64,000 nt of DNA from Oscillospiraceae bacterium. GTDB taxonomy: Bacteria > Bacillota > Clostridia > Oscillospirales > UBA929. Shown in pieces: positions 8,826-31,489 of the stretch. How positions within the stretch are numbered: the first letter of the stretch is position 1; each line of letters opens with the position of its first letter. The stretch is from the NCBI GenBank assembly GCA_031550325.1, contig JAVBOR010000026.1, positions 5,274-69,273 of the forward strand, given 5' to 3'. The notes beneath the pieces were generated by a model, which worked only from the letters and a program-made list of their open reading frames with translations, had not been told where the DNA came from and did no database searches. A program made the translations under genes and the position numbers.

Positions 8826-9080
8826 TTACATGGGCTCGGAGGGAAGTTCGCGGTAGAGTGTCACGGAGCTTTCACGCGAGACGTGTTCGCTGACAGACAG
8901 CACCTCCACGGTCAGGCGGCGCGCGCCGAAGCGTACGGAAATCACATCGCCGACCTTGACCTCGTACGATGCCTTGGCCGGTTTGCCGCCCACCGTGACC
9001 CTTTCGTTGTCGCAAGCCTCGTTGGCGACCGTGCGGCGCTTGATCAGCCGGGAAACCTTAAGGTATTTGTCCAGGCGCAT
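8826..9080 (-). CDS. yabO: S4 RNA-binding protein YabO/RqcP (Hsp15-like)
   Basis: MRLDKYLKVSRLIKRRTVANEAC. Confidence 0.92.
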   Translation of the reverse strand: MRLDKYLKVSRLIKRRTVANEACDNERVTVGGKPAKASYEVKVGDVISVRFGARRLTVEVLSVSEHVSRESSVTLYRELPSEPM

Positions 9081-9237
9081 TGCCGCCCTCCAAACTGTAA
9101 GCATAGCCGTCTCTCTAACGGATTGCCCAAAAGGCAACCCCGTGTAGCGCGTCCCGCAAAAGAGCGGGGGGCGCGAACCGCGGGGGACGCGCAAATGCGC
9201 GTCTTCGCTATTGAGACGGCCACGAAAATCATGCCGA

Positions 9238-9513
9238 TTAGTTGTTGACAGCGTCTTTAAGGGCCTTACCGGGTTTAAAAACCGGAGACTTCGAGGCCGA
9301 AATGGAGATTTTTTCTTTGGTCTTGGGGTTGCGGCCAACGCGCGCTTTGCGGTCTTTCACTTCAAAGGAGCCAAAGCCAACGAGTTGAACTTTATCGCCG
9401 CCGGTCAGGGCATCGGAAACGGTGTCGAATACCGCAGTGATCACGCTTTCGGAGTCTTTTTTAGTAAGACCGGTTTTTTCAGCCACGGAGTTGACAAGCT
9501 CAGCTTTGTTCAT
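9238..9513 (-). CDS. hup: DNA-binding protein HU
   Basis: [22 protein letters not shown]. Confidence 0.97.
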
Positions 9514-9543
9514 AGTAGATGATCCTCCTCATGTTCTTCTGAA

Positions 9544-9573
9544 TAGTATGCTAACGGCCAACAAAATCCATAC
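9544..9573 (-). promoter_or_regulatory. Putative sigmaG-type (forespore) promoter of hup
   Basis: GTATG-N18-CATACTA on minus strand. Confidence 0.5.
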
Positions 9574-9604
9574 GCCGTTATAGCCAAAAGGTTGCAGGGA
9601 AACA

Positions 9605-10243
9605 TTAGGACAGTTCGTCCACAAAACGGCGGCAACGCGCAAGCAAGGCCTGTTCGGCGTCCAGCCCGGAGGCGCAGGCGCGCTTTACAAGGTCAAACAG
9701 CTCGTCCCCCAGCTCGTCCTGCGTCATCGAGCCGCTCTGCGTCGGCGCAATGAGCTTTGCCTTGCCGGCGCGCGAGATCAGCTTGCCGGCCTTCATGAGC
9801 GCGGGCAGGGTGGAGGGAACGGCGCGCAGCGGGTCGAGCGGCTGGGTTTGTCCTTTGGTCTGACGCTTGATCTGATCCCACTGGGCGAGAACCTCTTGAG
9901 AATCCTTGACCTGCGACTGGCCAAACACATGCGGATGGCGCGTGATCAGTTTTGTACAAATTCCCGCGATCACGTCGTCGATGGAGAAGTCTCCATGCTC
10001 GGCGGCCATCTGGGCGTGAAACACCACCTGAAGCAGCACATCGCCCAGCTCTTCGCACAGAGCGCCCGTGTCATGGAGCTCTATGGCCTCCAAGGCCTCA
10101 TAACTCTCCTCCAGAAGATTCGCGCGAATGGACTCGTGCGTTTGCTCCCGATCCCATACACAGCCCTCCGGAGAGCGCAGAATCCGCATGACGGACACCA
10201 ATGTATTCCAATTTGGCAATCCGTCCATTAGCAAATCTATCAT
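9605..10243 (-). CDS. mazG: MazG-family nucleoside triphosphate pyrophosphohydrolase
   Basis: LRSPEGCVWDREQTH, EELGDVLLQVVFH, RHPHVF. Confidence 0.92.
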   Translation of the reverse strand: MIDLLMDGLPNWNTLVSVMRILRSPEGCVWDREQTHESIRANLLEESYEALEAIELHDTGALCEELGDVLLQVVFHAQMAAEHGDFSIDDVIAGICTKLITRHPHVFGQSQVKDSQEVLAQWDQIKRQTKGQTQPLDPLRAVPSTLPALMKAGKLISRAGKAKLIAPTQSGSMTQDELGDELFDLVKRACASGLDAEQALLARCRRFVDELS

Positions 10244-10278
10244 ATCTTTAGCCTTTCTTCAAGTGTTTTTTTAATTTC

Positions 10279-11880
10279 TTACTTTATTCTTAAAAATTTC
10301 GCAATATTTTCCCCCTTGGGTATTGACATAAGATCGGATTTTGGCAACGCACGTAACAAAAGCACTAAAACGAAATAACATAAACAGCCCAAAAGAATGG
10401 CGCCAAGAAGTGAAATGGTGTTGCCCGTAAAGCGGATGAACAGGAAATAGCTGCCCCGCGCGACAAACGCCATGCCCAATGCGGCGATGAGCGGCTTTAT
10501 AAAAACCGAGAGCGTGCGCGCGCCTGAGCGCGTGACGCGCAGGATAAACAGCAGATTGAGCACAGAAATCAGGGCGTAGCACAAAACGGTGCCGATGGGC
10601 GCGCCGTTAATGTTGATGGAGGGGTTGCCGACAAGCACATAGTTGCAGACGATTTTCGCCAGCGCGCCCACCGCCATGGTGGCCACGGGCAGCGAGACAA
10701 GTCCAAGACTCTGCAAAATCGCCGAGGTGAGCGAAACCAGACTGACAAAAATGATGCCGATGGCCAGCGTTGACAGCAGGGGAGCGCCGATGGCGACGCC
10801 CTCGGGGTGAGCCCCGTAAAACATCGTGAGGATGGGGTTTGACAGCACCATCATACCCAGCGCCGCGGGGAAGACCAGCAGCGACGTGACGCGCAGCGAA
10901 GAGCGGACGGTACTGACGACAAGCTTTTGGTTGCGGTTTGTACGCGCCGCCGAAAGAGCCGGGATGATGCTGATGGACAGCGGGATGATGAAGCCCGGCG
11001 GGAAGTTAAAAAACGTAATGGCCCAGGTATACGCGCCGTAAACCTCTTTGGCGGCCTGCTCGGTAAAGCCCGCAGCGCTCTGCAGCCGGCCCAGAACGAG
11101 CGATGTGTCAATCAGACTCGTGATGTTGAGTACCGCCGAGCCGATGGTGATGGGCAGGGCGATTTTGAGCAGTGTGGAGAGAATGCCGCGGCGCGAATGG
11201 TTTTGGCGCCCTTCGGGGGCGTGAGGGCGCTTGACAAAAAACATGTATACGGCGGCGAGCGCTGTGCCGACGCTGACGCCCAAAATGGCAGCCGAGGCTT
11301 GTATGTCGATGCCGAAGGACGCGTTGACGGCGAGGTGGACGAGCAGAAGGCCAAACGCCGCTTTGCCCGCGACTTCAATGATTTGGGACATGGCCGTGGG
11401 CTTCATGTTGCCCATACCCTGATGGTATCCGCGGAAAGGACAGATAATGCACACAAAGAAGATCGCGGGCGCGATGGCGCGGATGGGGGCGACGGCGTCC
11501 CCGGCGTCGTTCATCCATACGGCGATGACCGGCGCGCCAAAAAACATCGCTAATGATCCCACCACGCCGATGACAAAGAAAAGCGTGGAGGCCACGCGGA
11601 AAACCTCACGCGATTCCTGAGGACGGCCCAGCGCTTCGGCCTCGGAGACCATTTTGGAGATGGCCACGGGAAGGCCGGCAGTTGACAGCGCGAACAGCAC
11701 CGAGTAAATCTGGTAGGCCACCTGAAAATGCGCCGAGCCCTCCTGCCCCAAGATGTTTTGAATGGGGATTTTATAGACCATGCCGATGAGCTTGACAAGC
11801 CCGGTGGCGATGGCAAGAATCAGCGCGCCGTGCAGAAAGCTCTGTTTCGCATCCTTTTGGATGCGACGGGATCCGGACAT
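10279..11880 (-). CDS. SpoVB/YabM-type polysaccharide biosynthesis flippase (MOP superfamily)
   Basis: SFLHGALIL, AGLPVAISKMVSE, FRGYHQGMGNMKPTA; many TM segments. Confidence 0.9.
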   Translation of the reverse strand: MSGSRRIQKDAKQSFLHGALILAIATGLVKLIGMVYKIPIQNILGQEGSAHFQVAYQIYSVLFALSTAGLPVAISKMVSEAEALGRPQESREVFRVASTLFFVIGVVGSLAMFFGAPVIAVWMNDAGDAVAPIRAIAPAIFFVCIICPFRGYHQGMGNMKPTAMSQIIEVAGKAAFGLLLVHLAVNASFGIDIQASAAILGVSVGTALAAVYMFFVKRPHAPEGRQNHSRRGILSTLLKIALPITIGSAVLNITSLIDTSLVLGRLQSAAGFTEQAAKEVYGAYTWAITFFNFPPGFIIPLSISIIPALSAARTNRNQKLVVSTVRSSLRVTSLLVFPAALGMMVLSNPILTMFYGAHPEGVAIGAPLLSTLAIGIIFVSLVSLTSAILQSLGLVSLPVATMAVGALAKIVCNYVLVGNPSININGAPIGTVLCYALISVLNLLFILRVTRSGARTLSVFIKPLIAALGMAFVARGSYFLFIRFTGNTISLLGAILLGCLCYFVLVLLLRALPKSDLMSIPKGENIAKFLRIK

Positions 11881-11938
11881 TCAACCACTACCTTACCCAA
11901 TATCAACTTGCCGCGCAAACAACCGCAGCCGCACTGCA

Positions 11939-11967
11939 ACCATATGACTCCCAAAGCTAAAAAATGC
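11939..11967 (-). promoter_or_regulatory. Putative sigmaE-type promoter of the SpoVB-like flippase
   Basis: GCATTTT-N14-CATATGGT on minus strand. Confidence 0.5.
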
Positions 11968-13231
11968 AGGCCGCCTTGCGCGCGGCGTCCATCACCCGCT
12001 CGCGGTCGATGGTGGGAAATTCGCCATCTTCATAGAGAACGCGCCCGCGCACCATGGTCATCCGGACATCGCTCCCGCGCGCAGTGTAAACCAGATGGGA
12101 GGAGACGCTGTAGCAGGGGGTGAGATGCGGTTTGTCGAAGTCAAGAAGGACAAGATCCGCGTCAAGCCCGACCTCAATGCGCCCGGTCTCATTGCTGCGG
12201 CCGGCTGCCGCCGCCCCGTTTTGGGTCGCCATCGCCAGAACGTCGCGGGCAGTGACCGCACAGGGGGATAGCTGCGCCATGGCGGCAAACTTGAGTTCCT
12301 CAAACAGGTCATGGTTATTGTTGGAGGCCACGCCGTCGGTGCCGAGGGCGACATTGACGGCGCCGCGCAGCATCGCGGGAATATCGGCAACGCCCGAGGA
12401 CAGCTTGAAGTTGCTGACGGGGTTGTGCACGGCGGTCACGCCGCGGCCCGCCAAAAGAGCCAGATCGCCTTCCTCAATGAACACGCAGTGCGCTGCCACG
12501 CCGCCATGGGGCCAAAGCCCGGCCTCACAAAGCACCTGCACAGGGGTTTTGCCCCCGTGGCGCTGCCTGCACTCCTCGTGCTCGCGCCTTGTCTCTGAAA
12601 TATGAATGTGCATGCGCAGGCCCTTTTCGGAGGCCAGCTGCGCCATGGGTGCCCAGAGCGCGCCGGTTGACGTGTATTCGGCGTGCACGGACGCGTCGAT
12701 GCGGATCAGGCCGCGGTCGTGTCCATGCCAGCGCTCGGCAAGTCCGGCCGTCTCATGATAGGCGGCGCTGTCGGGCCAGCTGAAGCCCTCGGGCTGCACG
12801 CAGCCACGTGAAAGGTTGGCCTTGACCCCCGCCGACGCCACAGCCTCGGCCATGGCGTCGCAGTGGTCATACATGTCGATAACACAGGTCGTTCCCCCGG
12901 CAAGGCACTCCATGAGACTAAGCAGGGTGCCCACGCCGACAAGCTCGTCGGTGAGTTTGGTCTCTGCAGGCAAAATGTGGCCGAACAGCCAATCCTGCAG
13001 GTTGAGATCATCGGCAAAGCCGCGCAAAAGCGACATGGGCAGATGGGTGTGCGCGTTGATCAGCCCCGGAATAAGCACCATATGCGGGCGGGCGATGACA
13101 CGCCCGGCCTTTTCCGTGGGCTGCTCCGAGCCGACATAGGCGATTTTGCCGTCCCGAACGCCGACGTAGGCCGGGGAGAGCACGGAGCCGTCGGGCATAA
13201 GCGCCGACACCCCGGAAAACAACATATCCAT
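11957..13231 (-). CDS. Amidohydrolase, 5'-methylthioadenosine/S-adenosylhomocysteine deaminase-like
   Basis: PGLINAHTH, HIHISET, AAHCV, LGTDGVASNN. Confidence 0.88.
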   Translation of the reverse strand: MDMLFSGVSALMPDGSVLSPAYVGVRDGKIAYVGSEQPTEKAGRVIARPHMVLIPGLINAHTHLPMSLLRGFADDLNLQDWLFGHILPAETKLTDELVGVGTLLSLMECLAGGTTCVIDMYDHCDAMAEAVASAGVKANLSRGCVQPEGFSWPDSAAYHETAGLAERWHGHDRGLIRIDASVHAEYTSTGALWAPMAQLASEKGLRMHIHISETRREHEECRQRHGGKTPVQVLCEAGLWPHGGVAAHCVFIEEGDLALLAGRGVTAVHNPVSNFKLSSGVADIPAMLRGAVNVALGTDGVASNNNHDLFEELKFAAMAQLSPCAVTARDVLAMATQNGAAAAGRSNETGRIEVGLDADLVLLDFDKPHLTPCYSVSSHLVYTARGSDVRMTMVRGRVLYEDGEFPTIDRERVMDAARKAACIF

Positions 13232-14053
13232 TTACATGGTCTCCAAACAGCGTAATATCAATTGGGAAAACTTCTTTTTCGAGGCCTCGGAGGTGTCGAG
13301 AACCTCCTGCTCGCTCAGCTCATGGGCCTGAAGTCCTGCCGCCATATTGCAAATGAGCGAAAAGCCCAGGATGCGCATGCCCGCGTGGCGGGCGGCAATG
13401 ACCTCGGGAACCGTGGACATGCCCACGGCGTCTGCGCCTAAAAGGGCGGCGACGCGGATCTCGGCGGGCGTCTCGTACTGAGGCCCCTGGAAGTACATGT
13501 ACACGCCCTCGCGCAGGGGAACGCCGACAAGCTGCGCCGCCGTGCGCGCGACGTCCTGGAGCGTGGGCGTATAGGTGTGGCTCATGTCGGGAAAGCGAGG
13601 GCCGATCGCCGAAAGGTTCGGGCCGCGCAGCGGAGACTGATCGGACAGCTTGATGTGATCGGTGATCAGCATGATGTCCCCTGGCGTGAACGCTTTGTTG
13701 ACGCCGCCTGTGGCGTTGGTCACGAGCAGGGTGTCGGCGCCGAGCATGCTGAGCGCGCGCACGCCGTGCGCCGCCGTCAAAAAGTCATAGCCCTCGTAGT
13801 AATGAAACCTGCCCTGCATGACCGCCACGCGGCGTCCGGACAGACGCCCAAAAATCAGGCGTCCCTGGTGGCCGGGCGCGGTCGAAACGGGAAAGCCGGG
13901 GATGGTGACGTAAGGGAAGTAGACAGCGTCTTCGCAGAGGTCGCCCAGCGCGCCCAACCCCGAGCCGAGGATGAGGATGATTTCCGGCGCGAAGGGGATT
14001 CGGTCGCGCAGGTACGCGACGCTCGCGTCAAGCGCTTTGGCGTGATCATCCAT
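13232..14053 (-). CDS. punA: Purine nucleoside phosphorylase (trimeric type)
   Basis: ILGSGLG, GRFHYYEG, GPQYETPAE, GMSTVPE. Confidence 0.94.
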   Translation of the reverse strand: MDDHAKALDASVAYLRDRIPFAPEIILILGSGLGALGDLCEDAVYFPYVTIPGFPVSTAPGHQGRLIFGRLSGRRVAVMQGRFHYYEGYDFLTAAHGVRALSMLGADTLLVTNATGGVNKAFTPGDIMLITDHIKLSDQSPLRGPNLSAIGPRFPDMSHTYTPTLQDVARTAAQLVGVPLREGVYMYFQGPQYETPAEIRVAALLGADAVGMSTVPEVIAARHAGMRILGFSLICNMAAGLQAHELSEQEVLDTSEASKKKFSQLILRCLETM

Positions 14054-14057
14054 GGCG

Positions 14058-14453
14058 CTATTCCATTGACGTGCCGCAGTATCGGCAGTAACGATCGTCT
14101 CGGCTCAGCTTCTGGCTGCACTTTGCGCAGATTTTGATCTGCTTGAGCTCGTTGATGCGCTGGTTGATCTCCTGAATCGCGTTTTGGTCCTTGTCTACGG
14201 TCGCCAGAAGGTCGTCAACGCTGTCCGTGTCGGTGTTGGGGTCAAGGTGGGCGCTGTACACAAGCTGGCCGATGCTCTGCATGTTTTTGTTGATGTCGTG
14301 CTGCAGGTCGCTTATCTGAAGATTCAACCGCGTGATCTCCCACATGTCGCTGGCTTTTTTGCCGGCGGTGTCCAGCGTGCGGCCGGCAGCCTCTCCGGCG
14401 ATTGAGGCCGTGGATTTGACCTTTTCCAAAAAGTCTTTTACAGTGTTTCCCAT
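14058..14453 (-). CDS. Zinc-ribbon domain coiled-coil protein
   Basis: ATG 14453 after AGGAGG; coiled coil then CAKC...YCRYCG. Confidence 0.8.
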   Translation of the reverse strand: MGNTVKDFLEKVKSTASIAGEAAGRTLDTAGKKASDMWEITRLNLQISDLQHDINKNMQSIGQLVYSAHLDPNTDTDSVDDLLATVDKDQNAIQEINQRINELKQIKICAKCSQKLSRDDRYCRYCGTSME

Positions 14454-14613
14454 TCTCTTTTCCTCCTTTGAAAATGTTGAATCGAAGAGCGCATCGCCTC
14501 GCGCCGCGAGAATAAGCCTGCCGCTGCGCGAAAATGCCGGTCGGCTTCGCCGCCCCTGTTTTTCGCCTCCGCTTGGTCTTATTCTCGCTGCTCGGCGATT
14601 CGGCTCTTCTTTT

Positions 14614-24753: not shown

Positions 24754-26175
24754 TCAGTCTGCGCCTGCCTCGGCCTGTGAAAGCGCGTCGGCCAAAGTGC
24801 TTGCCCAGGGCCGGTCGGATGCGAGCTGAGACAGGCGGTAGGCCAGCCAGGGCCCGTTGAGCCGCAGAATGTTCAGTACGCGTGCGTCGGACAGCCAGCC
24901 GGGCGGGGCGTCGGGCGGGGCGCACAGGATGGCCCGGCGCAGGGAAAACCAGAGCTCGGCCCAAAAATCATAGACCTCCAGCCGGAGAAGCGCGAGCGGA
25001 TAAAGGGAAAACGCCAACAGAGCGCTTGCTTCGCTGACCGGACGGTCGGCGGTTGCGATGTTCTGGAAGCGGAGCAGATATCGTACGGCGCGCGCGTGAC
25101 CGGGCTGCGCCGTCAACGTGACCATCAGGCCGTCGTCGCGCGCGATGAACACGTCGAGCCACCGCGCGTCAAGCTGCCGTGAGGAATCCAGCTGCACAAG
25201 GTTGAGCAGCGCCTCGCGCAGCACCTCATAGCCCACGGGAATATTCTCCCCGTAGCGCTTGTAGAACCTGCCCGGCGTGTCCAGCTCCAGCGCCAGCGCA
25301 ATGACGGCGTGCGGGCGGCGCATCCCTGAAAGATGGCGCTCCAGAACCGTCAGGGCCTCGCGCGTACCAAACGCGGCCATCGCGGCCGTGAGAGGCAGCT
25401 CCAGTTCAGATAGCGTTGCCGGATCGCCGGAAAAAACGTCGTCGCAGAGCGCCGACAAAAAAGCGAACAGCTCGTCTGTGCGCTCCTCCAGAACCGTCAT
25501 GGCTGACACCGCTTGCAAGAGCTCCCTGCGGGAAGCTTTGCCGCGCGGGGGAAGGTGGGCGCGCGCCCTCTCCAGCAAGGCCTTTTCAGCCGGGTCGCAC
25601 CGGGCTTCGGGCTTTGGAGGCTCTACAGCGCCGCCCAGCGCGCGCCGCAGAGCCTCTGTGCGTCTGCGGCCCGGCTCGGTGCGCCGCTGGTCATGAGTGG
25701 TGATGAAGGGCAGAAGCTCAGGGCCGAGGCGCAAAAGCGCGCCCCACGCGCGGTCGGACGTTTCTTCCGGGCCGTCCAGACAGGCCAGAAGGTCGGGGAC
25801 GAGACGCAAATCCGGCGGCGGCGCGAGAGGCGCGTCGGCTGCCGAAATCGCGCGGCGCAGGGAGAGCAGCGTGCGGTAGGATATCTGCTGCCCCTCCTGA
25901 GACAGGCCGCCCGGCACGATGGGCGTCGTTTGCCCGGCCTCAGGCCGCCCGGCGCGGGCCCGCCAAAGCGCCAGCGCCTGACCGAGGAGAAGCGAAAAGG
26001 CCTCGGGCGACTGTTCGGCGGCAAAGCCGCGGCAGAGAGCCGCGGCGGCGGTCAGCGAGGCGGCCTCCAACTCCGGGACTAGCGCCAGAAACTGCTTCCC
26101 GGCGTCGGGAGAGGCGCAGCCGGCCAAGGCCCAACGGCGGCAGTGCTGAAAAAGCGTGTTGACGATCTGCTCCAT
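24754..26175 (-). CDS. Hypothetical alpha-helical (HEAT-repeat-like) protein, partner of the SWIM protein
   Basis: 473 aa, Leu/Ala-rich helical; [14 protein letters not shown] and LDARWLD segments; follows the SWIM gene. Confidence 0.55.
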
Positions 26176-26198
26176 GGCGCCAGCCCCCTTTCGTTACG

Positions 26199-27509
26199 TT
26201 ATGAGTCCAGCCGGAACAGGGAGCGCGCGCCGAGCAGGCAGAGCGGCTGCGCCGTGTACGTTCCGAGCGCTGAAAGGCCGATGCGGACAAGGCAGGCCTC
26301 AAACGCGCTCATGTCCAAAAGCTCCATCAGGTCAAGCACGCGCGCCTGGCCCGAAAGCGCGAGCTGCCTGCCGGCGCCGTCGGCCAGCGCAAGGCCGTCC
26401 TGCGTGCGGCAGACGCGGGAAAAGCGCGTAAGCGCCACAGGCGGCGTCCAGCCAAACGGGTCGGATAGCCGCTCCCGTACATAGGCGTCAAGCGCCTCAA
26501 AGTCGGGCAGAGCCTGCGCGAGCGCGTCACGCAGATGGGCCTGCTCAATGGATGCGGCGCTGAACCCCTTCCACCTGACGCGGTCGTGCAGCGGATAGCG
26601 GAACAGCTTCGGGACGAGCGCCACGTCGTGAAAAGAGTCGCTCTCATGGGTAAACCGCGTTGCAGCCAGCGGGCGCAGCGCGGTTGTGAAGACCAGTCCG
26701 CCGCCGTCAAGGTCAATCCAGACGCCGGTTTCCTCCAGACGGCGCGCGGCGGCGTTTTCGGATACCATAAAGCTCAGCTGGAGAAGGCGGGCGTCCACCG
26801 AAAAGCGTCCGAGCGACTCGAGGTCGCTGAGCGTCCACGCGCGCCCCAAAAAACTGTCAAGCATGGGATCGAGGTGACCGCCGGGACGGCCAAGCTCTTC
26901 CAGCGCGCGCCGCCCCAGCGCGTACAGGTTAGTGAGCACTGTCAGGGCGTCGTCTACTGCGCCCGTGGAGTAAAGCAGCGCAAACTCGTCCAGTCGCTCG
27001 CGAATCCCAGGCAAACGGGCCTCGGTCAGGGCTTTGCCCTCGGCTAGCAGCGTCTGGAGGGCCTTTGCGTCAAGGGATGAAAGTCCGCGCGCCCAAAGGT
27101 CCGACAGCGTGGAGATACAGCGCTCAAGCGCCCGGCGCTGGGCGTCCCGCCATTTCGGCGCGACGGCCGCGTTTTGCATTTCGGAAAAGGTCATCTGCTG
27201 ATATGTCGCCGTGTCGCCAAACGTTTCGGGCAGCGGGGCGAAGCGGCCGGGATCACGGATGTAGGAGAGCAGCAGCCCGATCGCGTGCTTGCAGGGGGAC
27301 TGGCGCGAGGGGCAGGTGCACTTGCAGCGCGGCGGCTCGTTAAGCTCGACCGTCACGGCGTAGGGCCGGGACGCGCTTCCCGGACACAGCCCGGAAAGCT
27401 GCCCGGCTCCGGCGTACAGGCCCTCAAGGGTGTCCGCGAGCGCGCGGCCGCCCTCCAGCGCGCGGGCGGTCGGCGCCAGCGTCTCCACATAGGCTTCGGT
27501 CAAGAGCAT
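26199..27509 (-). CDS. SWIM zinc-finger protein (YehQ-like)
   Basis: GSASRPY...CKCTCPSRQSPCKHAIGL is the SWIM CxC-xn-CxH motif. Confidence 0.85.
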   Translation of the reverse strand: MLLTEAYVETLAPTARALEGGRALADTLEGLYAGAGQLSGLCPGSASRPYAVTVELNEPPRCKCTCPSRQSPCKHAIGLLLSYIRDPGRFAPLPETFGDTATYQQMTFSEMQNAAVAPKWRDAQRRALERCISTLSDLWARGLSSLDAKALQTLLAEGKALTEARLPGIRERLDEFALLYSTGAVDDALTVLTNLYALGRRALEELGRPGGHLDPMLDSFLGRAWTLSDLESLGRFSVDARLLQLSFMVSENAAARRLEETGVWIDLDGGGLVFTTALRPLAATRFTHESDSFHDVALVPKLFRYPLHDRVRWKGFSAASIEQAHLRDALAQALPDFEALDAYVRERLSDPFGWTPPVALTRFSRVCRTQDGLALADGAGRQLALSGQARVLDLMELLDMSAFEACLVRIGLSALGTYTAQPLCLLGARSLFRLDS

Positions 27510-27512
27510 GGG

Positions 27513-27998
27513 CTACAGTCCCCTGCCGGGACTCTTAAACAGTCCGAGTTTTTCAACCGCAAACAGAAGGGGAAGCCCAAGCCCAAAGCAGACGACAAGC
27601 TGGCCAAACCCGACCTGCGCCGAGAAGAGGAAAAACGCCGCGTCGGGAGCTTCGGGAACGGTAACGCTCAGCACGGCGCCGACGACAAAGGCGTTGATCA
27701 CAACGGGCGGCAGCGGCGCGAGCCACCTGAGCTTGATGCGCGCGGTCAGCAGGCCGGCTGCCAGCGTGGCCAGCGAGCCGAAAATGATATCGGGAAGGCC
27801 GTTGCCGCCCAATATATTGGCCAGAGCGCAGCCGATAAACAGCCCCCAGGACGACATGGGAAACAAAAAGGGAAGAATGGTCAGCGCCTCGGAAATCCTG
27901 AACTGTACGGGTCCGTAGGAGATCGGGGCGAAAAGAAGTGTCAGCAGGGTATAGACGGCCCCGATCAGCGCGGCCTGGGCAATTGTTTTGATTTTCAT
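27513..27998 (-). CDS. queT: QueT queuosine-precursor transporter (ECF S component)
   Basis: APISYGPVQFRISEAL, GLFIGCALAN, DIIFGSLATL. Confidence 0.9.
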   Translation of the reverse strand: MKIKTIAQAALIGAVYTLLTLLFAPISYGPVQFRISEALTILPFLFPMSSWGLFIGCALANILGGNGLPDIIFGSLATLAAGLLTARIKLRWLAPLPPVVINAFVVGAVLSVTVPEAPDAAFFLFSAQVGFGQLVVCFGLGLPLLFAVEKLGLFKSPGRGL

Positions 27999-28012
27999 GA
28001 AACACCTGTCCT

Positions 28013-28702
28013 CTATGGAATCTGCGCGCGCCCGGCGTTGGGAAGCCCCCTCGCGGCGCGCACCCTGTCGATCCAAGGTTTAAACTGGTTATAAAGCGCG
28101 CGCTCCCGCGCGGAGCGCAAAAACGGGGAGAAGCCGTACCCCTCGATCCACTCCTTTTCGCGCTTGTACAGCACGTCCATGCGTTTACAGCGAAACTTCG
28201 CGGCGGGCGGATGAAGATGACAGAGCGACTCAATATCGCCAGCGGTGCGAATGCCGAGCGCCCAAAGCACACAGGCCGGCGCGAGCAGCCGCGCGGCAAA
28301 AATATTCGCCTTATACTCCTCCGGGTGGCGGGTGTCCAGGTCGCCGTCGTTTTGCCGGGTCACGCGCGCCTTTCCCAGGGAGATAAACTGGTGCCCGCAC
28401 ACGAGGTGGCCCACCTCGTGTGCGAGCGTGAAACGGATTCGGTTGTTGTCTTTATGAAGGTCGTTAAAAAAAATGTAACACTGATCGTCAATGGACAGCG
28501 TGAAGCCCTCGTTGCGCAGGGCATGCTCATGGAGTCCCAGGGAGTCGATCAGCCCTTGCGCGTCCCGATAGGTGAAGACTTCAATGCCCATGGTCGCTGC
28601 CAGCTTGGAAACGCTGAAAGGCAGCTCGTCGATGCCATAGCGCAGCAAGATCTCCCAGGAGGCGTTGCGCGCGCGCTTGTACAAATTGTAAAAGTTTTCC
28701 AA
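28013..28702 (-). CDS. ImmA/IrrE-family metallo-endopeptidase (anti-repressor)
   Basis: RIRFTLAHEVGH (HExxH) and EYKANIFAARLLAP; adjacent to an XRE repressor. Confidence 0.9.
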   Translation of the reverse strand: MENFYNLYKRARNASWEILLRYGIDELPFSVSKLAATMGIEVFTYRDAQGLIDSLGLHEHALRNEGFTLSIDDQCYIFFNDLHKDNNRIRFTLAHEVGHLVCGHQFISLGKARVTRQNDGDLDTRHPEEYKANIFAARLLAPACVLWALGIRTAGDIESLCHLHPPAAKFRCKRMDVLYKREKEWIEGYGFSPFLRSARERALYNQFKPWIDRVRAARGLPNAGRAQIP

Positions 28703-28791
28703 AAATCGGCACCCCGCTGAACATTGTGTCAGAGAATTGGCGGAAAGTACAGCCCCAATTCAAAAAAACATTGCAGCGGCCGCGCCCGGCT

Positions 28792-29175
28792 TTACAGTTT
28801 TTCCGCGGCAGAGGGATCGTGCTCATCCTGTGACAGCGCCCTGACAATGCGCCTGAACGTCTCCAGCTGCTCCGGCGTGACATAGATGACTTCATTGTAC
28901 CCGTCCCGGCCGAAAACTTCAATACGCGTTCTGTCCAAAGGAAAAATATTGCGCTGCGGGTTGACGTTTTCCACCGGAGCGGGATTGTTGGTGCGCCCAA
29001 GGATGAAGTCGACCGAGCAGCCGAGCAGCTCGGACAGGGCGATCAGATTTTTGCCTGCGGGGTTCTTTTTGCCGCTTTCCCATTCGCTGACGGTCGGCTG
29101 TGAAACGCCCAGCGACAACGCGATTTCTTTCTGACTGATGTGCTTGGCCTCGCGCGCACGCTTAAAATTACTCAT
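28792..29175 (-). CDS. XRE/ImmR-like HTH repressor
   Basis: ISQKEIALSLGVSQPTVSEWESGKKNP...LGCSVDFILGR. Confidence 0.92.
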   Translation of the reverse strand: MSNFKRAREAKHISQKEIALSLGVSQPTVSEWESGKKNPAGKNLIALSELLGCSVDFILGRTNNPAPVENVNPQRNIFPLDRTRIEVFGRDGYNEVIYVTPEQLETFRRIVRALSQDEHDPSAAEKL

Positions 29176-29252
29176 AGCTATCTCCTTTCTCATCAATTCT
29201 TCCTTTCCCTTGCTCTATGCCGGGCGTTATGCACCCGACTTTATCTGCGACC

Positions 29253-29349
29253 ATTATATAGCCAAAAGTTATAAAAGGCAAGAAGAATATCTTAGCGAAA
29301 AGCTATTGACAAATCAAAAAATGGTGAGATAATATAGCCACCAGCGAAT
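29253..29349. promoter_or_regulatory. Divergent promoter pair with three operator-like repeats
   Basis: Minus: TTGCCT-N17-TATAAT (29281-29253); plus: TTGACA-N16-GATAAT (29306-29333); repeats TATAGC-N5-GTTATA, CTTAGC-N5-GCTATT, TATAGC-N5-GCGAAT. Confidence 0.8.
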
Positions 29350-29366
29350 ATGAGAGGAGAATAAAG

Positions 29367-29576
29367 ATGAGAGTATGGCTAAAGACAATCAGATGCGAGC
29401 AGGGGAGGACCCAGCGCGACGTGGCGGACGCCGCGGGAATCCGGCAGGCTGCCTACTGCAACATTGAAAACGGACGGCGACGCCCGAGACCGGACGTCGC
29501 CAAGCGCATTGGAAGGAGCCTGAGTTTCAGCTGGACGAGGTTTTACGACGAGGAGGAGGACGGACGTGTCGTTTAG
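29367..29576 (+). CDS. Cro-like XRE HTH protein
   Basis: 69 aa, TQRDVADAAGIRQAAYCNIENGRRRP; GAGGAG RBS; divergent from the repressor. Confidence 0.9.
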   Translation: MRVWLKTIRCEQGRTQRDVADAAGIRQAAYCNIENGRRRPRPDVAKRIGRSLSFSWTRFYDEEEDGRVV

Positions 29577-29832
29577 AAAACGCCGTGGCGTCAGGCTCAG
29601 CTACAACCGCCAGGGGCTTGTCCACTTTACGTGTTTGGACTATCGCAACCAGCCGACCGAGGTGCGGCGCAAGATCAGGGAGCTTTGCCGGTCGGCCGGC
29701 GGCGAGTACTCCGAGGCGCTGTTTGAGGCGCTCACCACCGACAGGTCGGCCGTGCAGATCTGCCAGAGGCACTACATAGCCAGCCCGACGACGCTGTATG
29801 AAATGCGCCGAAAGTTCTACGAGCGGTGGTGA
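29566..29832 (+). CDS. Small basic phage-type protein, possible transcriptional regulator
   Basis: 88 aa, GGAGGAGG RBS, overlaps the cro-like gene; C-terminal SAVQICQRHYIASPTTLYEMRRKFY looks HTH-like. Confidence 0.7.
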   Translation: MSFRKRRGVRLSYNRQGLVHFTCLDYRNQPTEVRRKIRELCRSAGGEYSEALFEALTTDRSAVQICQRHYIASPTTLYEMRRKFYERW

Positions 29833-29849
29833 GCGCCCCGGAGAAACTG

Positions 29850-31346
29850 CTAAAACGGGCTCCCCCAGAGCTCTATCAGCCTCAGGCGGGTCGGCGCGTC
29901 GGCGTTTTTGTAGTCCTCCCACTGATCGGGCTTCCATACGGCGCGCCGCGCGGGCGCGCGCTGGAGTTCAAAACGCATTTGCGACCTGATATGGTGCGCG
30001 ATGGCCAGCGCCATGACGCAGTCGTCGTGCGCTCCCGCCTCGGCCTCCGGCCTGAAACTCTTGCCGCGCACAAATGTGAGCATCTCCGAAAGCGTGTCAG
30101 CGTCGCACACGAGAGTGGGATCCTCGCGCACGGCGCGAATCAGACCGGACAGGATGACAGGGCGCGTAACCGATGTGGTGCGAAAGCCGTATGCGTGCCC
30201 GGCGGATACCGTGAAGCTGTCCTCCCGCTCGCGCACGTACTGGTTCGGGTAGCCGAGCCGGTCAAGCTCTTTGACAGGGTAGGTGGAGAAGTTGGTCTCA
30301 ATGCCGATGAGGGCATTGTGGTAATGGACGCCGAGACAGAACATCTGCCTGGCGTAAAGATCCTCGTCAAAGCGATGGCGGAGCGTGGCGACCTGCTGTC
30401 CGCTGATGTTGTCCAGCACCTGCCCGACAAAGCTGTCCGAGCCGTCTCCCGCCGTGTCACCACCGATGACGTAGGGCCTGCCCGCCTGCGGCGCGGCGTA
30501 CAACTTGATTGGCCCGCCGATGTCGTCGACCCAGGCGATGGAGCTCAGCGCCTGCCCGTCGTCGCAATAGGTGAAGTAGCCCTGCGCTATGGGTCTGATG
30601 TTCATGGCAAGCCGCCCGCTGATGTCGGCTGCCGGGAACACCGTTTGCCCCAACGCTCCCCAACACCCGAGACAGTACACGGTGTAGTAATACTCGTCTG
30701 TCTGCTTGAACCCCTCCAGCACGCGCACGGCAGCCTCGTCGAGAAACCGGTTGTCCTTATAGGTGCTGTGGTGCGTCAACGCGTCGGCGTCGATCGTGTC
30801 GAAGAAGCGTTTCTTGAGCCAGTGCGTCGCGCTGACCGGGTTAAAGGTGATGAGAATTTGCTTGTACTGCGGCGTTTGCCCGCGCAGGCGGATGTCCAGC
30901 TGATGAAAATCTGCCTCCTGCAGCTCGGAGGCCTCCTCAATCCAAATGCCCGTGATGCCGAAGATGGATTTCAGCTTGTCCGGGTCGTCCAGACCGGCGA
31001 ACACAATCTCTGAGCCGTTGATGAAGGTGATGCGCAGATCGCTTTTGTGGCACCGCGCGAGCTGATCGGCGTAGTGCTCGGCGATCTGCCCGCAAAGCTG
31101 CCTAAAGCAGCTCTCCCGCAAGGTTTTTGCCACCTTTCGACACACAAGCCAGCGATGGCCGGGTTCGCCGGTGACGCGTTCGAGGATCTTGCGCCCGGCA
31201 AACACGGATTTGCCCGAGCCGCCGCCGCCCATCAGCACAAGATAGCGGTGCTCGTCGGCAAACAGGTCGTAAAACGCTTTGTTGGTCGTCTTCATCAGCG
31301 TGTCCCGCCAATGCGCCAGCGCCGCGAGGTCTTTTTCTTCCCTCAT
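29850..31346 (-). CDS. Phage terminase large subunit (PBSX-type ATPase plus nuclease domain), stand-alone
   Basis: Walker A GGGGSGKS, Walker B IWIEEA, TFNP, HSTYKDN; nuclease acidic residues GGDTAGDGSD and HDDCVMALAIA. Confidence 0.93.
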   Translation of the reverse strand: MREEKDLAALAHWRDTLMKTTNKAFYDLFADEHRYLVLMGGGGSGKSVFAGRKILERVTGEPGHRWLVCRKVAKTLRESCFRQLCGQIAEHYADQLARCHKSDLRITFINGSEIVFAGLDDPDKLKSIFGITGIWIEEASELQEADFHQLDIRLRGQTPQYKQILITFNPVSATHWLKKRFFDTIDADALTHHSTYKDNRFLDEAAVRVLEGFKQTDEYYYTVYCLGCWGALGQTVFPAADISGRLAMNIRPIAQGYFTYCDDGQALSSIAWVDDIGGPIKLYAAPQAGRPYVIGGDTAGDGSDSFVGQVLDNISGQQVATLRHRFDEDLYARQMFCLGVHYHNALIGIETNFSTYPVKELDRLGYPNQYVREREDSFTVSAGHAYGFRTTSVTRPVILSGLIRAVREDPTLVCDADTLSEMLTFVRGKSFRPEAEAGAHDDCVMALAIAHHIRSQMRFELQRAPARRAVWKPDQWEDYKNADAPTRLRLIELWGSPF

Positions 31347-31437
31347 AAAACAATACCCCCTGAGCCCAATTTGCCCTGGCAAGGGCGCGGGCTCGGGGGT
31401 AGTTTATCATCGGGGACGCGTCGGTTATCACAAAGTT

Positions 31438-31489
31438 CCTCGTTTTGTCAAAGAACCTTTGGTTCTTTGACAAAACGAGGGCAGGATCA
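31438..31489. repeat. Perfect 20-bp-arm palindrome, member of the dispersed repeat family
   Basis: CCTCGTTTTGTCAAAGAACC-TTT-GGTTCTTTGACAAAACGAGG; reverse complement plus GCAGGATCA matches 56543-56586. Confidence 0.9.

Follow-up and report, generated by a model that had tools for sequence, protein, structure and literature searches.

The DNA analysed in this work, referred to as the window, is a stretch of 64,000 nucleotides (nt) taken from contig JAVBOR010000026.1 (positions 5,274 to 69,273 of the forward strand; contig C36 in what follows) of an Oscillospiraceae bacterium (assembly GCA_031550325.1). Near its middle, between queT and fprA, lies a cassette of phage-type genes, and this report concerns that cassette together with the genes elsewhere in the same genome that appear to belong with it. 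An earlier note made from the sequence letters had recognized five genes in the cassette (an ImmA-like protease, an XRE repressor, a Cro-like protein, an 88-aa protein and a large terminase, TerL) and named its two neighbors. All five genes were confirmed where the note had placed them, and both flanks were confirmed by profile matches (QueT, E 6.6e-43; an FprA-like flavoprotein with ODP and flavodoxin domains). The features of the cassette, in window coordinates, are the following.

28013..28702, minus strand: ImmA/IrrE-type M78 metalloprotease of 229 amino acids (aa) with the motif HEVGH (Pfam Peptidase_M78, E 1.5e-9)
28792..29196, minus strand: XRE/CI-type repressor of 134 aa, in the same orientation as ImmA (HTH_3, E 1.2e-17)
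29253..29340, both strands: divergent promoter/operator region between xre and cro (promoter scan, direct repeat D3 and reading of the sequence)
29281-29253, minus strand: P_xre, TTGCCT-17-TATAAT
29306-29333, plus strand: P_cro, TTGACA-16-GATAAT, with TG
29367..29576, plus strand: Cro-like helix-turn-helix (HTH) protein of 69 aa (HTH_3, E 6.9e-12)
29566..29832, plus strand: orf88, an open reading frame (ORF) of 88 aa with homologues upstream of the small terminase gene terS in relatives
29850..31346, minus strand: terL, large terminase TerL of 498 aa from the ATG at 31346, the ORF being open to a TTG at 31382 (Terminase_3, E 2.1e-50)
31401..31433, minus strand: copy of the motif P_late upstream of terL, TTGTGATAACCGACGCGTCCCCGATGATAAACT
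31438..31480: perfect palindrome with 20-nt arms CCTCGTTTTGTCAAAGAACC and a 3-nt loop, between fprA and P_late (inverted repeat I2)

The best reading of these data is that the cassette would be the control center and the DNA-packaging motor of a phage-derived, short-tailed particle system whose remaining genes lie on two other contigs.

The switch, the terminase and the particle genes at other loci

Based on its profile matches (PF06114, 38.1 bits against a cut-off of 22 bits; phrog_1914, E 2.9e-36; phrog_87, a metallo-protease family, E 9e-12), the ImmA-like protein, in whose translation HEVGH was read, is predicted to act as the anti-repressor protease of the switch. The XRE protein matches the PHROG repressor families phrog_8, phrog_4 and phrog_3, and the two genes together display the traits of ImmR/ImmA-type systems, namely an M78 HExxH protease and an adjoining, co-oriented XRE repressor with a divergent promoter. 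A promoter scan of the xre-cro region returned 5 sites against 1.3 expected. P_xre and P_cro are divergent and sigma-70-like, with 10 and 11 of 12 positions matched, respectively, and a 12-nt repeat, AT(T/A)ATATAGCCA (family D3), occurs at 29253-29264 and 29329-29340, one copy overlapping each -10. To judge from the sequence, the region is arranged as in a classic repressor switch. Homologues of cro adjoin xre in two relatives (L056 and L094). On the other side cro overlaps orf88 by 11 nt, and orf88 is preceded by the ribosome-binding stretch GAGGAGGAGGA. The description of the ORFs as host-like in GC content was right for terL (0.57-0.64) and wrong for the switch region, in which GC content (0.51-0.59) lies below that of the flanks (0.60-0.69).

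The earlier note had placed terL after orf88 in the same direction, which proved to be an error: the gene lies on the minus strand, outside the cro operon, and converges on cro-orf88, with the stop codons 17 nt apart. Its claim that the terminase is full-length with intact Walker A/B, TFNP and nuclease aspartates was borne out by an alignment with five homologues (54-63% identical), none of which shows a change in Walker A (GGGGSGKS), Walker B (IWIEEA) or TFNP. The acidic residues D297, E350 and D441/D442 are likewise invariant in all five; these are presumably the catalytic residues of the nuclease, the match to a solved structure spanning the ATPase domain only. Among solved structures the closest is that of Sf6 gp2 (E 1.7e-12, over the ATPase domain), with which the Walker/TFNP region aligns, and the profile scores comprise PF04466 (171.6 bits), phrog_3717 (E 7e-69) and phrog_2, which spans residues 37-491. 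By these sequence comparisons TerL is an intact P22/Sf6-like ATPase-nuclease of the PBSX family. It is the sole terminase match in its own genome, in which no TerL_ATPase family match was detected. In the phage collection no record spanned at least 80% of TerL (best, 55.7% identity over 43% of the query), and a single-sequence scan of viral contigs with TerL gave no match. As a speculation, antisense interference is conceivable between cro-orf88 and terL, which converge without an intervening terminator.

It had also been suggested that a particle is encoded elsewhere in the genome, and a search for orphan portal, capsid, tail or terS clusters had been recommended. This search was run by tblastn on the own genome (2.04 Mb in 69 contigs, 95% complete, contamination 0.04%), using as queries the proteins of a relative with a contiguous cluster (G029), and it upheld the suggestion: terL and orf88 were placed on C36, the portal, scaffold-like, cement-like and capsid genes on contig C47, within a portal-to-lysis cluster that has no terminase, and an orphan terS on contig C32, with no integrase at either of these two loci. 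The absence of other phage genes asserted by the earlier note therefore holds for contig C36, where terL and orf88 alone were found with the proteins of relatives, and fails genome-wide, with terS on C32 and portal, capsid, tail and lysis genes on C47. The additional features are the following.

C32:11899-11931: copy of P_late upstream of terS
C32:11944-12471: terS, 175 aa (phrog_606, E 1.9e-9, the same PHROG as the terS of G029)
C47:83176-83208: copy of P_late upstream of the portal gene
C47:83219-98620: portal-to-lysis block of about 15.4 kb

The TerS protein also matches GP3_package (E 6e-6), below Pfam's cut-off. Its gene is neighbored by an MMPL transporter and a 452-aa gene and, on the other side, by a PNPOx-like gene that starts 17 nt past the terS stop. 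The block on C47 begins with the portal (670 aa; phrog_156, E 8e-47; P22_portal, E 5e-6, below Pfam's cut-off), followed by a zinc-ribbon ORF, the scaffold-like and cement-like genes, the major capsid gene (332 aa; major head family phrog_371, E 6.5e-20; Phage_capsid_4, E 9e-14) and p204. After p204 come a 622-aa virion structural protein (phrog_3287), a tail-fibre-like protein, three more proteins, an M15 endolysin (Peptidase_M15_3, E 2e-21, plus a peptidoglycan-binding domain), a 57-aa holin-like ORF and p303. Upstream of the block lie cotJA/B, cotJC and an MCP chemotaxis receptor gene. All genes of the element, about 20 in number and ImmA included, are open and present in a single copy; no other match to the TerL_ATPase or HK97 capsid families was detected in the genome, and neither p178 nor the 1239-aa neighbor seen in the congener G001 has a match elsewhere in it. 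As a separate observation, a GC-rich direct repeat of about 80 nt occupies C47:85625-85900, where 446 nt separate the zinc-ribbon ORF from the scaffold-like gene; it inflates the scaffold ORF, called at 377 aa, whose true start is probably much later. A further copy of this repeat occurs at about 14505-14597 of the window (C36:19778-19870).

Structural and packaging genes that could not travel together in one particle, being dispersed or forming a cluster too large for the head, are a trait of gene transfer agents (GTAs), and dispersal is what was found here: terS on C32, terL on C36 and the portal-to-lysis block on C47. In a draft of 69 contigs it has to be asked whether the dispersal comes from assembly or binning, either by joining contigs of different organisms or by the splitting of a contiguous prophage during misassembly of a metagenome-assembled genome (MAG). 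This can be answered in part with Logan contigs, available from one DNA run and two RNA libraries of a single study; run X3 gave no contig at the locus. A contig of 8420 nt from the DNA run, an invertebrate gut metagenome that may be the window's own sample, matches 27900-31467 with 0 differences and spans the queT/immA and orf88/terL junctions, so that these junctions are not peculiar to the assembly of the window. The terL/fprA junction is left unbridged by the Logan contigs, which break there at a palindromic repeat found throughout the genome. Moreover, the genes lie deep within their contigs, terL 35 kb inside the 81-kb C36 (at least 33 kb from either end), terS 12 kb inside the 40-kb C32 and the portal gene 83 kb inside the 99-kb C47, with host genes on at least one side and gene-boundary precision. 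One palindromic repeat family is common to all three contigs, and the estimated contamination is as low as stated above. Considering this evidence, an artefact is hardly credible as the origin of the three loci. In an invertebrate-gut metatranscriptome library, a single contig takes in 29356-30453, with cro-orf88 and terL's 3' half, and coverage of its 5' half extends to 31423; DNA carry-over is possible in such a library, so that the coverage is no proof of transcription and gaps or contig ends are not readable as transcript boundaries.

The repeat family in question is represented in the window by the palindrome at 31438-31480. As 13-mers its half-sites number 133, spread over 48 of the 69 contigs, and as 14-mers 52 and 67; the contigs of the element carry 4 (C32), 6 (C36) and 2 (C47) half-sites. 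The palindrome is probably a repetitive extragenic palindromic (REP)-like or terminator-like sequence that serves as terminator or insulator for fprA. It was considered as an attachment (att) site and rejected, being a genome-wide repeat.

A retained lysogeny-type switch would also be expected if the pieces belonged to an element that still moves, such as a phage satellite, or a phage still active through reassembly or with the help of a second one, and satellites can resemble GTA candidates, as a preprint cautions (bioRxiv 10.64898/2026.07.08.737213). The recombinase matches of the genome are four of the tyrosine type (C8 and C66) and three of the serine type (C37, C35 and C31), none of them on C36, C32 or C47, and no integrase, replication or excision gene was found at the three loci, C47 ending just past the cluster. 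In the window no tRNA gene was found, and no direct repeat above chance length flanks the cassette, in agreement with the absence of integrase and att repeats asserted by the earlier note. No second phage with a gene of the TerL_ATPase or HK97 capsid families was detected in the genome either. A still-mobile element is, in consequence, extremely improbable. The lack of integration and replication genes is itself a GTA trait, seen here in the location of the recombinases elsewhere and in the overlap of cro with orf88, and it fits the proposed reading of a particle system with a control center in the window. Apart from the cassette, two minus-strand genes lie just upstream of queT (24754-27509), encoding proteins of 436 aa, with a SWIM zinc finger (E 6e-7), and of 473 aa, without a Pfam family.

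A motif upstream of each late unit and the candidate regulator orf88

Comparison of the regions upstream of the terS, terL and portal units brought to light a 33-nt motif, P_late, with the consensus

.TGTGATAAC..AC.CG.C.....T..TA..CT

and three copies in the genome. Its 16-nt core, TGTGATAACNNACNCG, has 3 matches on both strands (4.07 Mb), all of them at these sites, against a calculated chance expectation of about 0.06. P_late ends 12 nt before the ATG of terS, 10 nt before that of the portal gene and 54 nt before that of terL. The sites that come next in the genome share 16 of the 19 invariant positions and are found within oxidoreductase-like and trmD-like genes (named by eye), in antisense orientation. 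Other homology among the three loci was sought and none was found besides the motif, so that a larger duplication does not explain the copies. This triple, genome-unique motif is the strongest single result of the analysis. Co-ordinated expression of dispersed loci by a dedicated regulator, which is expected of a GTA, may be reflected in this motif before all three late units, with orf88 as the putative regulator. The segment TGTGATAAC is similar to the extended -10 of P_cro. At terL, by reading of the sequence, it is preceded at a distance of 16 nt by a TTGACA supplied by the right arm of the palindrome.

The motif also bears on the possibility that TerL alone has been co-opted under ImmA/XRE as a DNA-cutting defence or suicide effector. 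This inducible nuclease or anti-phage module, which the earlier note had offered as an alternative, would account for an intact ATPase-nuclease beside an inducible switch and apart from terS and portal. However, terL is transcribed towards the switch and not from it, and its motif is common to terS and to the portal-capsid-lysis cluster, which points to a joint use in packaging. The module gains nothing from the data and, no search for defence systems having been made, is regarded as highly improbable.

With regard to orf88, comparison with Pfam and PHROG gave no match (no Pfam family at the cut-off), and a word-index search retrieved only the protein itself. Its family nevertheless comprises 361 representative clusters of about 90 aa. 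An AF2 model shows four helices with a pLDDT of 97, where an earlier model built on 3 sequences had reached 62.7; the model has no fold match in the PDB at E <= 0.001. No similarity to sigma factors was detected, the best fold match to sigma region 4 being non-significant (E 5.3). Weak matches to HTH families (HTH_28, HTH_Tnp_1 and HTH_23) were obtained in the C-terminal half of family members, the best being HTH_Tnp_1 in one member (E 2e-7). In G029, as in 19 of 40 loci of relatives examined, a homologue of orf88 directly precedes the putative late promoter and terS, a position from which orf88 is predicted to be the late-gene activator. In another relative, a homologue 55% identical to orf88 (L035, G019:C152, 7659-7991) stands alone between host-like genes, away from the contig that carries terL, portal and capsid in that genome, meaning that the regulator gene is dispersed there too.

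A looser pattern, GAC(A/G)C(G/A)-N10-TAnnnT, was found upstream of terS in 5 of the 19 relatives with orf88 and in 0 of the 21 without it, with 0 occurrences on reverse strands and, in shuffles, 0.125 loci on average; the pattern was picked after seeing the data, and 3 of the 5 positive loci are near-identical kin. The architecture is common to the sites of the present genome and to the terS-upstream regions of orf88-bearing relatives, which links the motif with the late promoter in phages of the orf88 type and puts orf88 forward as the evident candidate for its activator. The copies before terL and portal are probably derived, since most contiguous relatives have no room for them at these two places.

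Altogether, this evidence makes it moderately probable that the three loci form one co-regulated, replication-defective, P22/Sf6-like particle system that is GTA-like or PBSX-like. The following chain is proposed. A stress signal would render ImmA active, and ImmA would cleave the XRE repressor; the loss of XRE would let P_cro fire, yielding Cro and the translationally coupled orf88; orf88 would in turn switch on the three P_late copies, and TerS, TerL and the particle and lysis proteins would be made together, with particles and lysis as the outcome. Phages of the P22/Sf6 type package by headful and carry out generalized transduction. The genes of the system lie tens of kb apart and include no replication module, and hence any particle could not carry or propagate the element and would package other DNA of the cell, by headful. 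That the system works as a gene transfer agent is, at present, doubtful. Equally tentative is the proposal that it represents an early, lineage-specific stage of GTA domestication, in which a P22-like phage would have been stripped of integrase and replication genes, its switch wired to orf88 and its late promoter copied after a three-way move.

Gene order in relatives and the possibility of prophage decay

A scan of species-representative genomes yielded 534 TerL relatives, the best 80 of which were examined. These are mostly Oscillospiraceae/Clostridia MAGs from guts and rumens, 50-64% identical in TerL, and none of the 80 is titled Faecalibacterium. The usual order in these loci, on one strand, is orf88-terS-terL-portal-scaffold-cement-capsid. 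A gene of the own terS type lies directly upstream of terL in 39 of the 80 loci and one of the own portal type directly downstream in 48, both being present in 29; several loci are truncated at a contig end or have modules of another type, and the gene order differs in a few. By estimate, the terS stop and the terL start lie 2 nt apart in the median (n=39; 36 at 50 nt or less), and for the terL stop and the portal start the median is 0 nt (n=45; 13 at 63 nt or more). In G029, which belongs to another family, a contiguous one-strand cluster of about 19 kb contains orf90 (42% identical to orf88), terS, terL, portal, scaffold-like, cement-like and capsid genes, tail genes and more ORFs; it sits between a pair of Orn/Lys/Arg decarboxylase and spermidine-synthase genes and PPDK, and no integrase or replication match was found among the cluster proteins scanned. 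In L056 a stretch of early genes of about 7.5 kb, one of them for a replication initiator (phrog_3584, E 9e-50), separates xre and cro from orf88 and terS, and in L094 a single-stranded DNA-binding protein (SSB) gene occupies the cro-to-orf88 interval. By comparison with these sequences, the early/replication interval is missing from the present genome, in which cro runs straight into orf88.

Some features of the relatives are recorded here in their own right. A separate operon of p204, p622, p603-like, lysin, holin-like and p303 genes was observed in 8 of 30 genomes of the family (genera g1, g5 and g7), often without head genes nearby; it has its own AT-rich upstream region, for instance in L021 (G013:C65, about 9080-14550) and in L022, L023, L025 and L038. 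In G013 this operon is near ddl and pepF-like genes, which in the present genome lie 10 kb from the portal (by eye), with different order and orientation. Upstream of terL in L014 (G013:C141, 8244-8360) there are tandem CAATTGACAATT/AACAATT repeats with at least six TTGACAATT-like copies on two strands, which have the look of an operator array. In L024 (G019:C99, 525-3385) about 2.8 kb without a convincing gene separates terL from portal, a junction that normally measures 0-20 nt.

The distribution of the genes is one ground for a different account, according to which a temperate phage of a type common in Oscillospiraceae integrated, lost modules by deletion and was scattered by the rearrangements frequent in the lineage, its genes being intact only because these events were recent and no function being served. 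Close terL homologues were found in 5 of the 30 family genomes, the capsid type in 4 and the terS type in 1, and orf88 homologues in 1 of the 5 relatives searched. Fixation in the host lineage, with vertical inheritance and purifying selection, is another trait of GTAs and is not what was observed, the distribution within the family being patchy. The earlier note had proposed to follow the cassette across related genomes and had named its absence from close relatives as a refuting result. In the sole congener searched (G001, 80% complete) the cassette and the terS type both went undetected, nor was the ImmA type found in G001 or in the other terL-type genomes of the family. The sets present in relatives are incomplete. 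In G013 (94% complete) one locus carries terL and portal and a second one the operon p204-p622-lysin-p303, and no capsid gene was detected; in G005 (97% complete) the capsid gene and terS-terL were detected and portal was not; in G001 there are tail and lysis genes only. These subsets look like the product of differential decay. The terL type, moreover, nests among those of ordinary phages with replication genes, a placement that the same note had listed among the results that would speak against its proposal, and the nearest atlas clusters of the capsid are viral.

Gene order in the host lends itself to the same account. The neighborhood of fprA in G001 is unrelated to that of the present genome, with dnaA, dnaN and gyrB-like ORFs nearby (by eye), which means that an empty insertion site is not definable; this lack of synteny between congeners suggests frequent rearrangement, which could scatter a prophage neutrally. 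Other points that weigh against a co-regulated system concern the motif, its regulator and the extent of the cluster. In the five relatives P_late has no exact match, and the few matches with one mismatch are not above control level nor beside phage genes where this was checked; in the 80 related loci no site retains at least 15 of the 19 invariant positions. The -10 hexamer within P_late is ambiguous, and one reading, on this unsettled point, leaves the portal unit a leader of about 3 nt. The role of orf88 as a candidate late-gene activator is deduced from its position and from the weak HTH signals. Finally, C47 ends 746 nt past p303, inside an ORF, so that the right end of the cluster lies beyond the contig.

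The age of the events finds no clear measure in protein divergence. RecJ of the present genome is 53% identical to that of G001, 43-44% to those of G013, G017, G019 and G005 and 40% to that of G029, and the proteins of the element are 39-67% identical to their homologues in the genomes compared, that is, as conserved as RecJ or more so. With element and host proteins about equally diverged, vertical and horizontal descent are not told apart. The nearest relative of any element protein is 55-67% identical, a distance at which nothing dates the events, as decay would allow, and at which synonymous sites would be saturated. The degrees of identity that terL, portal and capsid show to a given relative rise and fall together (rho 0.33-0.64), which is compatible with one origin and weak as evidence for it.

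Against neutral decay stands the observation that all breakpoints fall at gene boundaries and that each of the approximately 20 genes is open and single-copy. Each late fragment starts with the same genome-unique motif, for whose copies most contiguous relatives lack room, and the replication module would have to have been removed so cleanly that cro and orf88 were left overlapping behind GAGGAGGAGGA. Considering both sides, neutral wreckage is held to be rather unlikely. The view of the earlier note that the cassette is something other than random prophage debris is thereby favored in silico, with particle genes on C47, terS on C32 and a common motif that occurs nowhere else in the genome.

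If the proposal of an early stage of GTA domestication is true, promoter copying and not gene clustering would hold a split, virus-derived machine together, and its trigger would be the stress-induced cleavage of a repressor and not a quorum or cell-cycle circuit of the host. GTAs are hard to spot in genomes, where they look like dead prophages. The customary test of conservation across relatives fails or is undecidable in the present case, and a test internal to the sequence, one motif before each scattered piece, gives a clear signal. A system that does not work would still offer a well-resolved case of a prophage dismantled at gene boundaries.

Comparison with known systems

The packaging proteins have affinities with those of Sf6 and P22: the solved structure nearest to TerL is Sf6 gp2, and TerS and portal give matches to their P22 counterparts (gp3 and portal) that are weak and stay below Pfam's cut-off. 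The identities are low, and unlike the present system Sf6 and P22 are complete, autonomous phages. The ImmR/ImmA switches of ICEBs1 and phi105 likewise consist of an M78 HExxH protease next to a co-oriented XRE repressor with a divergent promoter. In contrast to these, the switch described here would directly control only Cro and orf88, no excision or conjugation genes accompany it, and cleavage of the repressor is a prediction.

PBSX of Bacillus subtilis comprises xre, the ImmA-like xkdA, the sigma-like late activator Xpf and the XtmA/XtmB terminase, and it packages about 13 kb of host DNA. Both systems present an ImmA-like gene, an Xre-type repressor, divergent early genes and then a small late activator (a candidate one here) followed by the terminase. 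TerL of the present system belongs to Pfam Terminase_3 ('PBSX family'), and both are replication-defective; carriage of host DNA would be a further common trait. PBSX differs in being one contiguous, myovirus-like cluster. Here the genes are podovirus-like, orf88 has no detected similarity to sigma factors, and no single contiguous late operon follows the switch, the late genes being split three ways with terL inverted with respect to the switch.

RcGTA of Rhodobacter capsulatus is a multi-locus, siphovirus-like, alphaproteobacterial GTA with a direct activator, GafA. As in RcGTA, the particle genes of the present system are spread over several loci without replication or integration genes, and a dedicated activator is proposed. 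Unlike here, terS and terL of RcGTA are in the main cluster, control is exerted by host CtrA and quorum sensing, and the genes are vertically conserved across an order, whereas the present system has a patchy distribution and has kept a phage-type repressor switch.

The closest precedent, by analogy of gene content and host, is FpGTA of Faecalibacterium prausnitzii, a podovirus-like GTA encoded in two operons about 125 kb apart, for which 40-nm particles with about 9 kb of packaged DNA were shown experimentally (Nat Commun 2026;17:2046, PMC12946183). In the same article, GTA-like packaging is described as prominent in Oscillospiraceae and Ruminococcaceae (PMC12946183), and a preprint reports GTA-like coverage in Oscillospiraceae for which cluster-based criteria found no gene cluster (10.64898/2026.07.08.737213). 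Scattered single-gene loci of the kind described here would escape prophage callers and could explain such packaging without a GTA cluster; a working system would point to searches by shared promoter instead of by gene cluster for the GTA genes of Oscillospiraceae still to be identified, with orf88/P_late as a concrete regulator-promoter pair.

The two systems are alike in that their hosts belong to the same broad group, Oscillospirales-type Clostridia, and in that both have podovirus-like TerS, TerL, portal, scaffold and capsid genes plus tail and lysis genes, without replication genes and at more than one chromosomal locus. The separate tail/lysis operon of relatives (8 of 30 family genomes) is reminiscent of operon II of FpGTA. 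The two systems differ in how the genes are divided: FpGTA holds terS, terL, portal and capsid in one operon of 10.5 kb and tail and lysis genes in a second of 5.5 kb, whereas here terS and terL each stand alone, capsid, tail and lysis genes lie together, and an ImmA/XRE/Cro switch and a small HTH-like protein are attached. Particles and packaged DNA were demonstrated for FpGTA, and the present system is known from its genes alone. Should it work, the podovirus-like GTAs recently described from gut Clostridia would gain a variant with three loci and a switch. What is new with respect to all these systems is that terS and terL are each alone, that every late unit has its own copy of the promoter motif, and that the phage-type repressor switch has been kept.

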